A stretch of DNA of 64,000 bases from Escherichia coli (GTDB lineage: Bacteria; Pseudomonadota; Gammaproteobacteria; Enterobacterales; Enterobacteriaceae): NCBI RefSeq assembly GCF_048403405.1, contig NZ_CP183129.1; one strand, 5' to 3'. The first letter of the stretch is position 1, and every line of letters begins with the position of its first letter. Both the position numbers and the translations under genes were made by a program. Under the pieces are notes generated by a model. That model searched no databases, had not been told where the DNA came from, and was given only the letters and a program-made list of their open reading frames with translations. Shown here one piece after another: positions 7,234 through 15,069 of the stretch.

Positions 7234-8068
7234 TTCTGATAATTCTGGGCGTTATATTGTTCTGGCAGCGGCAAAATCCGTTGCCGGGATTGGCGTCCTG
7301 AAATTGATTACTGAGCATAACCGCGCTCATGCGGTTTTTTCGTGTCATGAGCATTGCTACGCCCAAATTATGGTGGGGCGTACAGGGCCGACTTCGGTCG
7401 GGCCGGGTTCGGTAGTCTCCGGTAACGCCAACCCTGTACGTCTCACCACCTCTGTGATTGGCGTCCCATGTGGTGAGTTTTCTAAAAAACTGACTACCGG
7501 GGCTGTCACTATGACTACTCTCCCAACCCTCTCTCAACCTGAAATTGCCATCGTTGATGGTCAGGCTGTTACATCTTCTTTGGCTGTTGCTGACTTCTTC
7601 TCTAAACGTCATGACGATGTTCTGAAAAAGATTCGCATTTTGGATTGTTCTCCAGAGTTTTGTGCCCGCAATTTTGCGGAGACATCAATTTTGGTACGCC
7701 AGCCCAACGGCGGTACTCGCAAACTACCTTGCTATCAAATAACCCGCGATGGCTTTGCGTTTCTTGCTATGGGTTTCACGGGTAAACGTGCTGCCCAGTT
7801 CAAAGAGGCATACATCAATGCCTTTAACCAGATGGAACAGGCGCTGATCGGAAAGGTTGATACTTCATGTGTCGCGCACAATGCCCACGTTGTTTACCTC
7901 TACATGGCTGAAATTCACCGCGTTTGGTTAGAACAACTTTATCCGATGCTGGTTTCAGTTCAGTCTCCGCTGGCTTCATCGCTCTACGACTACATCAACG
8001 ATGGTGTATTCGTTGCCGGGCTGGTGGACTCGGAACTGAACGAAAAGCATAAGGAGGTGCGTAAGTGA
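7211..8068 (+). CDS. Rha-family phage regulatory protein with ~100-aa N-terminal extension
   Basis: Rha-type segment starts at internal ATG 7511 (MTTLPTLSQPEIAIVDGQAVTSSL...); no stop between 7211 and 7511. Confidence 0.6.
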   Translation: MSKPVMIDSDNSGRYIVLAAAKSVAGIGVLKLITEHNRAHAVFSCHEHCYAQIMVGRTGPTSVGPGSVVSGNANPVRLTTSVIGVPCGEFSKKLTTGAVTMTTLPTLSQPEIAIVDGQAVTSSLAVADFFSKRHDDVLKKIRILDCSPEFCARNFAETSILVRQPNGGTRKLPCYQITRDGFAFLAMGFTGKRAAQFKEAYINAFNQMEQALIGKVDTSCVAHNAHVVYLYMAEIHRVWLEQLYPMLVSVQSPLASSLYDYINDGVFVAGLVDSELNEKHKEVRK

Positions 8069-11366: not shown

Positions 11367-12362
11367 GTGACCGTGAGAGCACTACTGACCCCTGAAATTG
11401 CCCCGCGTATGGGGATCGTATTGTTCAGACCAGGTTCAGAGCTGATGCCCCTGTTTATGCAGGGGCGTGTCCTGCTGGAGCCTGAGCCGGAACGTTATTC
11501 ATCTTTCGCCAGTGGTGCCGTTCCGGCGGCATCACAACCGCTGGCGGATGATCCTGCCGTTCGGGCCGTGTTCCGCAATGAGGCAGTGATCCGTCGTGCT
11601 GGTGGCGTGGAATGTCTTGAAAGCTGGTTACTTCGTGAAAAAGGCTGCCAGTGGCCTCATTCCGACTGGCACAGCGAGAACATGACCACAATGCGACACG
11701 CTCCGGGTGCAATCCGTCTGTGCTGGCACTGCGATAATCAGCTGCGCGATCAGTTCACGGAACGGCTGGAATCAATGGCAACGGATAACTGTGCCCGCTG
11801 GGTGTTGTCTGTTGTGCGTCGGGATCTCGGTTTTGATGACAGTCACGTTGTGACAATGCCGGAACTGTGCTGGTGGCTGATTCGTAATGATCTGGCGGAT
11901 GCCTTACCGGAAAGTGCAGCCCGTAAGGCACTGAGATTACCGAAGCCTGTTGTGCCGACTGTTACCCGGGAAAGTGACCTTGTGCCTTCGGTTCCTGCCA
12001 CCAGCATCATCCGGGATAAGGCGAAAAAGGTGCTGGCGCTGAAAGTGGATCCGGAGTCGCCGGAGTCTTTTATGTTACGCCCAAAACGTCGCCGCTGGGT
12101 TAATGAAAAGTACACGCGCTGGGTTAAGACACAGCCGTGTGCATGTTGTGGAAAGCCCGCTGATGATCCCCACCACCTGATAGGTCACGGTCAGGGTGGA
12201 ATGGGAACAAAAGCGCATGACCTTTTTGTGTTGCCTTTGTGCAGAAAGCATCACGACGAGCTGCATGCGGATACCGTGGCATTTGAAGAGAAGTATGGTT
12301 CCCAACTGGAGCTGATATTTCGTTTTATCGATCGCGCGCTGGCGATTGGTGTGCTGTCCTGA
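11367..12362 (+). CDS. NinG/DUF968-family protein with C-terminal HNH-like Cys/His cluster
   Basis: 331 aa; CACCGK...HH...CRKHHDELH. Confidence 0.55.
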   Translation: MTVRALLTPEIAPRMGIVLFRPGSELMPLFMQGRVLLEPEPERYSSFASGAVPAASQPLADDPAVRAVFRNEAVIRRAGGVECLESWLLREKGCQWPHSDWHSENMTTMRHAPGAIRLCWHCDNQLRDQFTERLESMATDNCARWVLSVVRRDLGFDDSHVVTMPELCWWLIRNDLADALPESAARKALRLPKPVVPTVTRESDLVPSVPATSIIRDKAKKVLALKVDPESPESFMLRPKRRRWVNEKYTRWVKTQPCACCGKPADDPHHLIGHGQGGMGTKAHDLFVLPLCRKHHDELHADTVAFEEKYGSQLELIFRFIDRALAIGVLS

Positions 12363-12379
12363 TTTTGTGGAGAAAGTTG

Positions 12380-12760
12380 ATGCGTGATATTCAGATGGTT
12401 CTTGAACGCTGGGGGGCATGGGCGGCAAGTGGTAACACCGGGGTGGACTATTCTCCGATCGCTGCCGGATTCAAAGGACTTTTACCATCTGCCACTAAAC
12501 CACGTCCGGCCTGCTGCGATGATGACGGACTTATCATTGAAAACTGTCTTGCTCGTCTGAAGCAGAAAAAACCTGAGGAGTATTCGCTTCTCATTGCTCA
12601 TTATCTGTTGCGAATATCAAAAAGACAGATAGCCAGGACGAGAAAGAAAAGCGAAAAAGCAATACGAATTGAGATGCAGATAGCCGAAGGGTTTATTGAC
12701 GGATGTTTGTCTGTGCTGGGGGTAAGACTGGAGATGGACGACTGGCTGCTAAAAAAGTAA
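12380..12760 (+). CDS. Late antiterminator Q (phage 82/21 type, QuuD-like)
   Basis: 126 aa from ATG 12380 (MRDIQMVLERWGAWAA...), GGAG RBS. Confidence 0.8.
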   Translation: MRDIQMVLERWGAWAASGNTGVDYSPIAAGFKGLLPSATKPRPACCDDDGLIIENCLARLKQKKPEEYSLLIAHYLLRISKRQIARTRKKSEKAIRIEMQIAEGFIDGCLSVLGVRLEMDDWLLKK

Positions 12761-12829
12761 AAAATGATTAGTGCGGTCCGCAAAAAGTATGTCAGTATGT
12801 TAAGAGTGGTTACTTCGCCACACAGCTTA

Positions 12830-12852
12830 AACCCGCCGCGAGCGGGTTTTTT
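12830..12852 (+). terminator. tR'-like intrinsic terminator downstream of Q
   Basis: Stem aacccgc/gcgggtt, loop cgcga, tttttt; about 70 nt after Q stop. Confidence 0.55.
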
Positions 12853-12914
12853 ATGGCTGAACGTTAAATGCGCTGGTGGTTGTGAATGCCGACTGCGGCG
12901 GTATTTTGGCGTGA

Positions 12915-13189
12915 CGGCGCAGGTGCCGTATACCGATGTCTGGACGCATAAACCGGTACAGTTCTATCCCGGGAAACATCCGTGCGAAAAACCGGCAGAA
13001 ATGCTGCAGCAGATAATCAGCGCTAGCAGTCGTCCGGGTGACCTGATTGCAGATTTTTTCATGGGGTCGGGTTCGACAGTGAAAGCGGCACTGGCGCTCG
13101 GGCGTCGTGCAATTGGCGTTGAGCTGGAGACTGAACGTTTTGAGCAGACGGTTCGGGAAGTACAGGATTTAGTCAGCCAGAACGGATGA
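12915..13189 (+). pseudogene. C-terminal remnant of a DNA methyltransferase
   Basis: Only the C-terminal region (KHPCEKP...GDLIADFFMGSGST) is present; the NPPY catalytic part is missing; track ORF spans the tR' hairpin. Confidence 0.45.
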
Positions 13190-13229
13190 TATTGAAGAAT
13201 TAATTACGCGTCGTTATTATGCGGCTCCC

Positions 13230-13305
13230 GGCCCTTTAGCTCAGTGGTGAGAGCGAGCGACTCATAATCGCCAGGTCGCTGGTTCAAATCCAGCAAGGGC
13301 CACCA
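13230..13305 (+). tRNA. tRNA anticodon CAU (Ile2 lysidine/Met type; ileZ-like of lambdoid and Stx phages)
   Basis: Cloverleaf read manually: acceptor ggccctt/aagggcc, anticodon loop cuCAUaa, CCA present. Confidence 0.8.
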
Positions 13306-13312
13306 TCACATA

Positions 13313-13389
13313 CCGCCATTAGCTCATCAGGATAGAGCACCAGCCTTCGAAGCTGGTTGCGCGGGGTTCGAGTCCTCGATGGCGGTCCA
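13313..13389 (+). tRNA. tRNA-Arg anticodon UCG
   Basis: Acceptor ccgccat/atggcgg, anticodon loop cuUCGaa, T-arm ggttcgagtcc. Confidence 0.75.
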
Positions 13390-13402
13390 TTATCTGTACC
13401 CT

Positions 13403-13479
13403 GCGTTGTTAGCTCAACCGGACAGAGCAATTGCCTTCTAAGCAATCGGTCACTGGTTCGAATCCAGTACAACGCGCCA
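13403..13479 (+). tRNA. tRNA-Arg anticodon UCU (argO-like)
   Basis: Acceptor gcgttgt/acaacgc, anticodon loop cuUCUaa, T-arm ggttcgaatcc. Confidence 0.8.
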
Positions 13480-13493
13480 GACTTATTTTTCCC

Positions 13494-13519
13494 GGCTCGC
13501 TTTTGCGGGCCTTTTTTTT
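13494..13519 (+). terminator. Intrinsic terminator after tRNA cluster
   Basis: ggctcgc tttt gcgggcc then 8 T. Confidence 0.6.
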
Positions 13520-13719
13520 AAATGTCTCACAATTCAGACGGTTGACAGTTGTCTGTTTTGCGGGGAGTTTGTTAAAAGAAACTGGCATGGTGAATCCCCC
13601 TGTGCGGATGGGCAATCAGCGAGTAGGTATATGGGATAATCGCGGATTCAGGTGCTGGTACTGAATTCACCGGGAGGCACCCGGCACCATGCAGTTGACT
13701 GAAACCATGTATACTCTCA

Positions 13720-13750
13720 GGCCCCACGCACATGTGTTGGGGCCTTTTTA
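13720..13750 (+). terminator. Second intrinsic terminator in spacer before holin
   Basis: ggcccca...tggggcc stem followed by ttttt. Confidence 0.45.
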
Positions 13751-13920
13751 CATGCAAAAAAAAGCCCGCATATTGATACGGGCGGCAAGGAACAAAAAAC
13801 GTGAAGTGATCTATTCAGCCAGTGGATAATACCCTGACGTTACCATATTGCGCAATCGCGCATTCTTTCTTTTTCGCTCCCCTTATAACTACGCCATCCG
13901 TTCGCTGCGGAGGTGAGGCT

Positions 13921-14136
13921 ATGAAATCCATGGATAAAATTTCAACGGGCATTGCCTACGGCACCTCCGCAGGCAGTGCTGGCTACTGGTTTTTACAGTG
14001 GCTTGATCAGGTCAGTCCGTCACAGTGGGCTGCGATTGGTGTACTGGGGAGTCTGGTTCTGGGCTTCCTGACATATCTGACTAACCTGTATTTCAAAATC
14101 AGAGAGGACCGTCGTAAGGCTGCACGGGGAGAGTAA
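13921..14136 (+). CDS. Class II holin (EssD/S21-like)
   Basis: 71 aa from ATG 13921, GGAGGTGAGG RBS; two TM segments; MKSMDK...AARGE matches DLP12 EssD family. Confidence 0.85.
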
Positions 14137-14140
14137 TTCA

Positions 14141-14485
14141 ATGACTCAAAACTATGAACTGATTGTGAAAGGGATCCGCAATTTTGAGAATAAAGTTACG
14201 GTAACTTTAGCGTTACGGGACAAAAAACGCTTTGACGGTGAAATTTTTGACCTGGACATCTCGCTGGACCGTGTTGAAGGTGCCGCGCTGGAGTTTTATG
14301 AGGAAGCAGCCAGAAGGAGCATCAGACAGGTCTTCCTGGATGTTGCTGCCGGGTTATGTGAAGGGGGTGAGCAGTCGCCGGAAAAGCGCCCCGTAATTTT
14401 AGAGGCGCAGAATGTGTGGATAACCTACAAAGGAAAGCTACCGGGAAGAATTACTGGTTCTCTGAAGACTCCACCGCTGGGCTGA
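14141..14485 (+). CDS. Hypothetical protein between holin and endolysin
   Basis: 114-aa ORF; no recognisable motif. Confidence 0.45.
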   Translation: MTQNYELIVKGIRNFENKVTVTLALRDKKRFDGEIFDLDISLDRVEGAALEFYEEAARRSIRQVFLDVAAGLCEGGEQSPEKRPVILEAQNVWITYKGKLPGRITGSLKTPPLG

Positions 14486-14535
14486 AGACTTAACATATCC
14501 AGGTATTCGGAACCGATAAATCCTGATAAATATCC

Positions 14536-15069
14536 ATGAACGCAAAAATCAGATACGGCCTGTCGGCTGCCGTTCTGGCGCTGATTGCCGCAGGTGCGCC
14601 TGCGCCTGACATTCTCGACCAGTTTCTGGATGAAAAGGAAGGCAACCACACCACGGCATACCGTGATGGTGCAGGTATCTGGACCATCTGCCGTGGTGCC
14701 ATCATGGTGGATGGCAAACCTGTCGTTCCGGGCATGAAGTTGTCGAAGGAAAAATGCGAACAGGTTAACGCCATTGAGCGTGATAAAGCGCTGGCGTGGG
14801 TGGAGAAAAACATCAGAGTGCCGCTGACCGAACCCCAGAAAGCGGGGATCGCGTCATTCTGTCCGTACAACATTGGCCCCGGTAAGTGTTTCCCGTCGAC
14901 GTTTTATAAGCGGCTGAATGCCGGTGATCGTAAGGGGGCATGCGAAGCGATTCGCTGGTGGATTAAGGATGGTGGGCGCGATTGCCGCATACGTTCAAAT
15001 AACTGCTATGGGCAAGTTATTCGTCGTGACCAGGAAAGCGCATTAGCCTGTTGGGGGATAGAGCAGTGA
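14536..15069 (+). CDS. SAR-endolysin (GH24 lysozyme, RrrD-like)
   Basis: 177 aa; N-terminal signal-anchor-release segment; E/D/T catalytic spacing. Confidence 0.85.

Follow-up and report, generated by a model that had tools for sequence, protein, structure and literature searches.

We conclude, with a probability of roughly 85 per cent, that the interval between the Q gene and tRNA cluster and the holin-endolysin-Rz cassette of this lambdoid prophage consists of two convergent small RNA (sRNA) genes at a moron site. The plus-strand gene is an ordinary member of a known sRNA family, STnc100. The minus-strand gene, judged by its sequence, is a homologue of the EcOnc08/21/42 RNAs and of the EPEC E2348C_1409/1408-IGR RNA. 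An original prediction had described the interval as a structured spacer that could be a small RNA or a leader. Its features lie far beyond chance, in the Rfam match (E = 1.7e-30), in the stability of the two folds (z = -2.5 and -4.4), and in the covariation of the helices.

The prophage locus and its plus-strand RNA

All positions refer to the window, the whole stretch of 64,000 nucleotides of E. coli DNA that was analysed. The late region of the prophage includes genes for a DUF968 protein (11367-12362) and the Q antiterminator (12365-12760; Pfam PF06530), followed by the C-terminal remnant of a DNA methylase and a plus-strand cluster of three tRNAs (Ile2/Met-CAT, Arg-TCG, and Arg-TCT; 13230-13479), each of which Rfam also matched. 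An intrinsic terminator closes the tRNA cluster (13494-13511, then T8 to 13519) and forms the left border of the element; this junction recurs in many O157 prophage copies. On the other side lies a P21-type holin gene (ATG at 13921), then DUF1327, lysozyme, and Rz. Between these borders, the plus-strand terminator ends near 13750 and the minus-strand terminator at about 13757, so that two genes on opposite strands abut at their 3' ends. The same convergent layout is found in Sp5 and Sp4. Convergent sRNA pairs occupying the moron site 3' of PR' were reported by Tree et al. 2014 for Sp3, Sp4, Sp5, Sp9, Sp10, Sp11, Sp15, and Sp17 (PMC4104026), and a convergent pair upstream of the lysis genes is a known arrangement in lambda-like prophages. 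The locus also has close matches elsewhere: positions 13520-13800 are 100% identical to a chromosomal prophage of the urinary isolate ECO_2_R, and 13480-13925 are 99.6% identical to the temperate phage PhiR49_2 of ECOR13. The RefSeq minus-strand 'hypothetical protein' pseudogene drawn over the interval is almost certainly spurious.

An Rfam scan of 12300-14600 placed STnc100 (RF02076) at 13556-13755 on the plus strand at 133.1 bits, where the gathering threshold is 47 (E = 1.7e-30), and the match was found again when the whole window was scanned. It covers the covariance model at full length (positions 1-206 of 206). The conserved four-helix core spans 13585-13692. Its long-range closing helix, P1 (GCAUGGUG/CACCAUGC), joins 13585-92 with 13685-92, and the 5' hairpin P2 pairs 13597-601 with 13608-12, carrying T13609 in place of the consensus G. 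A hypervariable loop (13613-13643) separates P2 from P3 (GGAUUCAG/CUGAAUUC; 13644-51 with 13661-68), which is followed by P4 (CCGGG/CCCGG; 13670-74 with 13680-84). All the core helices of the family are present (the closing helix, CCCCU/AGGGG, the variable hairpin, and the CCGGG-AGGCA-CCCGG hairpin), with one C-U mismatch in P2. The minimum free energy (MFE) fold of 13585-13752 (-65.3 kcal/mol, z = -2.5) recovers P1, P3, P4, and the terminator.

The core is followed by a variable 3' module (13693-13751), made up in the fold of a single-stranded stretch (13693-13719), which is the probable target-pairing region, and an intrinsic terminator (stem 13720-13744, U5 at 13745-13749). The U-tail is short, with five U only; a simple terminator scan missed this terminator, and it was recovered by folding. 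Both plus-strand terminators that had been claimed are therefore present (13494-13511 then T8; 13720-13744 then U5). The two hairpins reported from the letters correspond to core helices as well: attcag/ctgaat is P3, in which GGATTCAG (13644-13651) pairs with CTGAATTC (13661-13668), and ccggg/cccgg is P4 (13670-13674 with 13680-13684).

The suggestion of a small RNA is borne out by the full-length family match and by relatives that are bound by Hfq and seen on Northern blots (PMC4104026 Table S2; PMC8550237 Table S6). EcOnc04, EcOnc05, and EcOnc27 were found in EHEC by both Hfq CRAC and Northern blot (PMC4104026), STnc100_4 was also seen by Northern blot, and STnc100 has been found in vesicles of Shiga-toxin-producing strains. 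Few bacterial sRNAs are annotated as often as this family, which is listed without function (PMC9029176), and a validated target, phenotype, or specific function of STnc100 itself is not established in the literature. A machine-learning study of O157:H7 reported variants in the STnc100 copy of the Stx2 phage as the strongest predictors of haemolytic uraemic syndrome (PMC12711010).

The nearest published counterparts are EcOnc04/05/27 of EHEC (sRNA103 in EDL933), which occupy the same place, after ileZ-argN-argO-type tRNAs and before the late genes. They share with the window the terminator-proximal 3' module that is the Hfq crosslink site in homologues; its position here matches the Hfq CRAC peaks of EcOnc27 and EcOnc05 and the seed of PasD. 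The window differs from them in carrying another allele of the 3' module and one broken pair in P2, and the holin gene follows its element directly, in place of the nanS-p-type esterase.

A second comparison is with PasD, which was validated as an Hfq-dependent sRNA and detected by RIL-seq in EPEC E2348/69 (Pearl Mizrahi et al. 2021; PMC8550237) and has been related to STnc100 (Zhu, Shabalina and Storz 2026; bioRxiv 10.64898/2026.05.13.724894). PasD1 and PasD2 lie at the same type of locus as the element in the window, between Q and holin, and their promoter and 5' end (GCAUGGUGAAUCC...) are homologous to it. The two also follow a common plan of a structured 5' domain, then a seed, then a terminator. 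In contrast to the window, the PasD core is degenerate, with P4 partly deleted, and falls below the Rfam threshold; PasD lacks the TCACAATTCAG upstream block; and neither the UGUGAG seed nor the GGCUGCGCAUGGCGCGGC terminator of its longer 3' module (~65 nt) is found in the window. On this comparison of sequences PasD is a relative of the family and not the same gene as the window element.

We also considered IpeX of K-12 DLP12, which is likewise a prophage sRNA in a Q-to-lysis interval with a QuuD-type Q protein. It arises by processing of the transcript of the nmpC porin gene (PMC12197685). There was no STnc100 match in K-12 572500-578500 (DLP12 quuD-nmpC-essD), and IpeX is a positional analogue only.

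Upstream of the core, E. coli-type copies share a conserved plus-strand block (TCACAATTCAG..TTGACA..TTGTCT..TGtTAAAAG; 13527-13584), which starts with TCACAATTCAG at 13527 and is kept behind at least six unrelated upstream contexts. This block could either hold the promoter of a short form of the RNA or be transcribed as the 5' leader of a longer one. The putative short-form promoter has a -35 TTGTCT (13549-54), an 18-nt spacer, and an extended -10 TGtTAAAAG (13570-78), with a predicted start at G13585. Such a start fits the mapping of PasD and the promoters of copies in other genera: the annotated 5' ends of PasD1 and PasD2 (1060260 and 741157) are the first G of GCAUGGUG (GCATGGTG), and the copies in other genera have TTGAC-N17/18-TAnnnT promoters ending ~6 nt before P1, each with its own terminator. 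The short form from G13585 would measure ~166 nt and the long form from ~13529 ~222 nt. On published Northern blots EcOnc04/05 ran at ~222 nt and EcOnc27 at ~235/247 nt (PMC4104026); a 5' end at the 13527 block predicts 220 and 234 nt, much nearer to these than the short form. Both forms may exist. The -10 of the window (TAAAAG) is without the -7 T, which makes for a weak promoter. A leader hairpin (CAGAC/GUCUG) that overlaps the putative -35 is paired by A-U, G-U, and G-C in three alleles and broken in others. There is a TCACA half-site with its centre at -61.5 relative to G13585, and it is conceivable, if unlikely, that transcription of the plus RNA depends on CRP.

Relatives, covariation, and the reading frame

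A 281-nt query was matched in 2791 of 5426 complete E. coli genomes, at up to 11 places per genome. Most of these matches end at 13693, the end of P1; the element is complete in ~100 E. coli genomes. One motif search returned 120 viral contigs and a second returned 39 genome stretches outside E. coli, often with tandem arrays. The genera with the core motif include Citrobacter, Enterobacter, Klebsiella, Raoultella, Leclercia, Kosakonia, Superficieibacter, Phytobacter, Franconibacter, and Trabulsiella, among others.

Part of P1, P2, and P4 was prescribed by the search pattern, and covariation can therefore be tested at the free positions only. Among twenty-seven distinct cores, 92.3% of pair cells were paired, compared with 41-50% when partners were slid by 1-3 columns, and the covariation score was reached by 0 of 500 shuffles. 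The third pair of P1 is AU in seventeen of these cores and GC in eight, and one P3 pair is GC in fifteen and AU in eleven. In a larger set of seventy-four distinct cores from many Enterobacteriaceae, P1 pair 3 is GC in thirty-nine and AU in thirty. MAFFT placed the inner P3 pairs of copies from outside E. coli in the wrong register (68% paired), and we therefore checked P3 copy by copy with RNAfold; a P3 hairpin abutting P4 is kept in sixty-nine of the seventy-four cores, in forty-five different sequences. The original prediction had named covariation across homologous spacers as one of its checks, and the helices do covary.

Insertions and deletions mark both the loop at 13613-13643 and the stretch from P1 to the terminator, which are hypervariable. 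Among Escherichia copies P2 and P4 are nearly invariant in sequence and P1 and P3 covary freely; in copies from other genera, for which the search fixed the P2 and P4 motifs, the 3' strand of P2 was left free and varies little. This pattern would suit a core on which a host or phage factor docks in a sequence-specific manner, a speculative reading that we regard as unlikely. The family would then amount to a modular scaffold, with target-recognition cassettes (the internal loop and the 3' module) exchanged through recombination at the conserved helices, and such swapping is suggested by the chimeric nature of the window allele.

The window core is identical at 107 nt to the commonest variant (found fifty-one times among the fetched loci), the single exception being T13609. 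In its 5' block (95% identity) and core (99%) the allele follows the Sp4-like copy of O157 Xuzhou21, itself a match to Sakai Sp4, where EcOnc05 maps. The 3' module has diverged, at 51-59% identity to the Sp4 and Sp5 copies, and since the 5' block and core stay near the Sp4 type, we consider the allele a mosaic.

T13609 breaks a C-G pair of P2 that is intact in twenty-six of twenty-seven aligned variants, and with P2 so weakened this copy could be impaired. It is conceivable that the element is a decaying, non-functional copy, one of many redundant ones, as its P2 mismatch and weak promoter might indicate. In the MFE fold, P2 is re-paired with the variable loop, and truncated copies do exist, such as the EPEC PP6 copy cut by ISEc13. 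Against decay, the core agrees with the commonest variant at its other 107 nt, the Rfam score is still 133 bits, and the full element is present in ~100 E. coli genomes. In addition, the variant of the overlapping reading frame that T13609 creates (Met for Arg) recurs in a second, non-identical copy, which is probably that of phage PhiR49_2. On balance we think decay quite improbable.

That reading frame, of 25 codons, had been given with the correct peptide (MVNPPVRMGNQRVGIWDNRGFRCWY) and with its ATG at '~13596'; the start codon in fact lies 9 nt further upstream (ATG 13587-13589, stop 13662-13664, plus strand), and the frame overlaps P1 to P3. A functional micropeptide encoded at 13587-13664 would account for the ATG or GTG found at this position in all ninety-seven unique copies (GTG mostly outside the E. 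coli-type group). Ribosome profiling also detected footprints on some EDL933 copies of STnc100, with footprint-to-transcript ratios up to 3.2 (PMC5331693); some copies may thus be translated to some extent, and we count this as weak contrary evidence. The start codon, however, lies inside helix P1, and its conservation is explained by the RNA. The first nine residues (MVNPPVRRG) overlie P1 and P2, and after residue 9 frame and sequence diverge, with homologous frames of 11-71 codons (11 in the Sp5 copy). There is no Shine-Dalgarno sequence before the ATG at 13587, and a transcript beginning at 13585 would place the ATG 2 nt from its 5' end and bury it in an 8-bp helix. Because neither length nor frame is conserved and a Shine-Dalgarno sequence is lacking, we judged the frame to be non-coding and, as far as its sequence tells, a by-product of the RNA; a small-protein gene here is extremely improbable.

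A predicted convergent minus-strand RNA

We searched for a convergent gene in the window because the STnc100 copy of Sp5 directly abuts AsxR on the opposite strand. The minus strand has a promoter with a -35 TTGCGC (13855-13850), an 18-nt spacer, and a -10 TATTAT (13831-13826). From it, an sRNA of ~63 nt (GCUGAAUAGAUCACUUCACGUUUUUUGUUCCUUGCCGCCCGUAUCAAUAUGCGGGC then U8; ~13819 to 13757) is predicted, with a 5' variable part, a U-rich stretch, the seed CCUUGCC (GGCAAGG on the plus strand at 13784-13790), and a terminator, in that order. The terminator consists of a hairpin (13783-13764) and U8 (13763-13756, eight A on the plus strand). A minus-strand hairpin with an A-run had been noticed at this place and its parts are there, the stem at 13764-13783 and the eight A at 13756-13763; the accompanying remark that it had no obvious gene to terminate does not hold, as it ends a conserved convergent sRNA gene. 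A 61-nt version of the transcript folds at -17.4 kcal/mol (z = -4.4).

Across twenty-four distinct homologues the promoter and body are retained, and upstream of the promoter the sequences are unrelated. Among the homologues there are three different terminator stems, each internally complementary, that is, covarying. The window allele occurs in ninety-six E. coli genomes and an Sp4-type allele (74% identical) in ~573; none of these copies is annotated. Both EPEC PP6 and Sakai Sp4 carry the Sp4-type allele, under published Hfq peaks, and in Sakai Sp4 the EcOnc08 Hfq peak (1179938-1180010) ends 5-6 nt from the start predicted by the promoter.

The window shares with EcOnc08/21/42 and the E2348C_1409/1408-IGR RNA the promoter, the body (...ACUUCACGUUUU..UUCCUUGCCGCCCG), the seed CCUUGCC, and a convergent position that abuts the STnc100 terminator. 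The window allele departs from them in its terminator stem (GCCCGUAU/AUGCGGGC) and in a shorter U/G-rich tract, with an overall identity of 74%. The RIL-seq targets of E2348C_1409.E2348C_1408.IGR (cfa, dppA, tir, and others) share GGCAAGG/GGCAGGG (PMC8550237), motifs complementary to the CCUUGCC retained in the window. Longer homologues have been reported, of ~271 nt by Northern blot in EHEC and of 182 nt by coordinate estimate in EPEC. The length of 63 nt is a prediction from promoter conservation, and forms like the longer ones cannot be inferred here because the sequence upstream of the promoter is unrelated.

AsxR and AgvB resemble the minus-strand RNA in being short convergent sRNAs, in their size class (51-60 nt), and in a terminator back-to-back with that of STnc100 (in Sp5). 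Their conserved 3' region (..AGUAUCUCAUGCNAUUGCCCGAACCCAYUCGGGC; ~42 nt common to EcOnc01-03) is absent from the window. We found no RF02703 or RF02702 match at E<=1 on 2.3 kb or at E<=10 on 191 nt, and we reject membership in that group. The low-scoring Rfam matches on the minus RNA (anti-hemB, OmrA-B, and snoZ182) reflect a generic terminator only.

Leader, insulator, and trans-acting roles

As for a leader, the layout of the plus-strand element does resemble that of a riboswitch, with a promoter, a structured domain, a variable linker, a terminator, and downstream genes. If the element were an attenuator, the core would sense a signal and control its own terminator, and hence holin expression. 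Many E. coli copies even have a terminator arm, GGAGGGGC, that equals the 3' strand of P2, which would permit an alternative pairing. This antiterminator-like pairing is confined to some E. coli alleles and is not conserved; PasD-type copies and those of other genera have unrelated terminators. Moreover, the genes downstream vary (a holin, an esterase, a tRNA, or another STnc100 copy), a convergent gene often stands in between, and there is no convincing match to an Rfam cis-regulatory family, as the only such matches scored well short of threshold (ClpQY_promoter, 12.5 bits, and Plastid-ycf2, antisense to a tRNA). We consider an attenuator very unlikely.

Nor does the element appear to be the PR'-tR' late leader of the lambda 6S or StxS type. 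That identity was rejected because in Sp5 STnc100 lies downstream of stx2B, and in the window a separate candidate tR' (12829-12852), by inference the late-leader terminator, directly follows Q ~700 nt upstream of the element. With promoter-like signals and a terminator of its own, its occurrence in tandem arrays, and differing downstream genes, the element lends no support to the leader reading.

A cis-acting role is harder to set aside. The back-to-back terminators could form an insulator that in lysogens mainly blocks read-through from the tRNA or moron promoters into holin, the RNAs being by-products; Q-modified polymerase would disregard these terminators. In every case the element stands between moron cargo (tRNAs, stx, or an esterase) and the late genes, an intrinsic terminator closes every copy, and lambdoid phages are known for morons bracketed by a promoter and terminator of their own (Juhala 2000, as cited in PMC4104026). 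A bare terminator, however, needs neither a promoter of its own nor a 108-nt core with invariant P2 and P4 and covarying P1 and P3. Tandem arrays would not be expected of an insulator, homologues are abundant Hfq ligands with RIL-seq targets, and the tRNA cluster is already closed by the terminator at 13494-13519. We regard insulation as the main role as rather unlikely; as a secondary function it is plausible and compatible with an sRNA role.

The preferred reading remains a pair of convergent sRNA genes. By analogy with the homologues, both RNAs would be made in the lysogen and would bind Hfq through their terminator and U-tail modules. The plus RNA may then pair in trans, through its variable single-stranded regions, with host or horizontally acquired mRNAs or sRNAs, and the minus RNA may act in trans by pairing CCUUGCC with GGCAAGG-type sites. 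Upon induction, Q-modified RNA polymerase from PR' would pass both terminators into the lysis genes.

All parts of the interval fit published families, and the arrangement is therefore already known. It should be annotated as STnc100 plus a convergent EcOnc08-type sRNA, in place of a spacer, a leader, or a micro-ORF, and the locus is best seen as modular and mosaic.

The region between Q and STnc100

Shortly 3' of the antiterminator gene Q (12365-12760), within 12760-12856, the plus strand carries a hairpin (AACCCGCC..GGCGGGUU) with a U-run behind it, at about 12829-12852. They are probably the short leader of the late promoter PR' and its terminator tR' in this phage, and lambda 6S RNA and StxS would be analogues of this putative leader. 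Rfam places a weak isrK-like match over the same interval (12780-12852, plus strand; 18 bits, E 0.55). The likely leader is overlapped by the 5' part of a 141-codon ORF at 12764-13189, which is flagged as partial in RefSeq. Only residues 50-130 of this ORF match N6_N4_Mtase (PF01555), and the match is to the C-terminal part of the domain; the ORF is a methylase remnant.

Next comes a trio of tRNA genes (13230-13479). The first (13230-13305) was called by ARAGORN as Met, with anticodon CAT, and an identical gene is annotated as tRNA-Ile in RefSeq. This tRNA is of the ileZ type, read as Ile once modified with lysidine, and the trio as a whole is the ileZ-argN-argO type of cluster known from lambdoid and Stx prophages. 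Beyond the tRNAs, the motif TCACA at 13527-13531 is conserved (within 13513-13534). It may form the right half of a putative CRP-like site centred at -61.5 relative to G13585, the first base of the closing helix P1 and the candidate 5' end of STnc100. Some alleles carry AAATGTTAAATGCCTCACAATT at this position, which contains TGTTA-N6-TCACA.

Annotation over STnc100 and other RNAs in the window

On the minus strand, 13575-13733 (2556-2714 of locus L002) is marked by RefSeq/PGAP as a partial pseudogene for a 'hypothetical protein', and many other E. coli genomes have the same annotation across STnc100. It overlaps the conserved RNA (13556-13755, plus strand) and is most likely a spurious call.

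In the early region of this prophage, Rfam gave strong matches to isrK (7265-7341, plus strand; 68.6 bits) and, directly 3' of it, to C4 antisense RNA (7366-7453, plus strand; 82.3 bits). Together these look like an antirepressor control module of the P1/P7 or Gifsy type. Two further matches exceeded the Rfam threshold, IS009 at 38050-38248 on the plus strand (225 bits) and the Hfq-binding RNA STnc490 at 52813-52936 on the minus strand (146 bits).

STnc100 copies elsewhere

Tandem arrays of two or three STnc100 copies were found at six loci (L130, L137, L139, L144, L154, and L042), with hosts including Superficieibacter, Leclercia, and some E. coli phage contigs. Each copy in these arrays has its own promoter and its own terminator, and L130 fits three copies inside about 620 nt. 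In prophage PP6 of EPEC E2348/69, an ISEc13 insertion has cut off the 5' end of the STnc100 copy (L127 1321-1497); the RIL-seq sRNA convergent with it is undamaged. An 888-bp Xanthomonas pisi contig (L145) contains a stretch identical to the STnc100/AsxR region downstream of stx2B in the Stx2 phage Sp5; the contig probably entered that assembly as contamination from E. coli or an Stx phage.

Downstream of stx2B, a T/C variant at +90 and the deletion of a T at +103 have been reported to abolish the features predicting haemolytic uraemic syndrome (PMC12711010). By our own count these fall at about positions 702 and 715 of the Sp5 locus (L005), downstream of stx2B, and the paper's exact numbering may differ. 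The variants would therefore lie, within L005 700-716, at or beside the putative extended -10 of the Sp5 STnc100 copy and between that -10 and the start of its P1.
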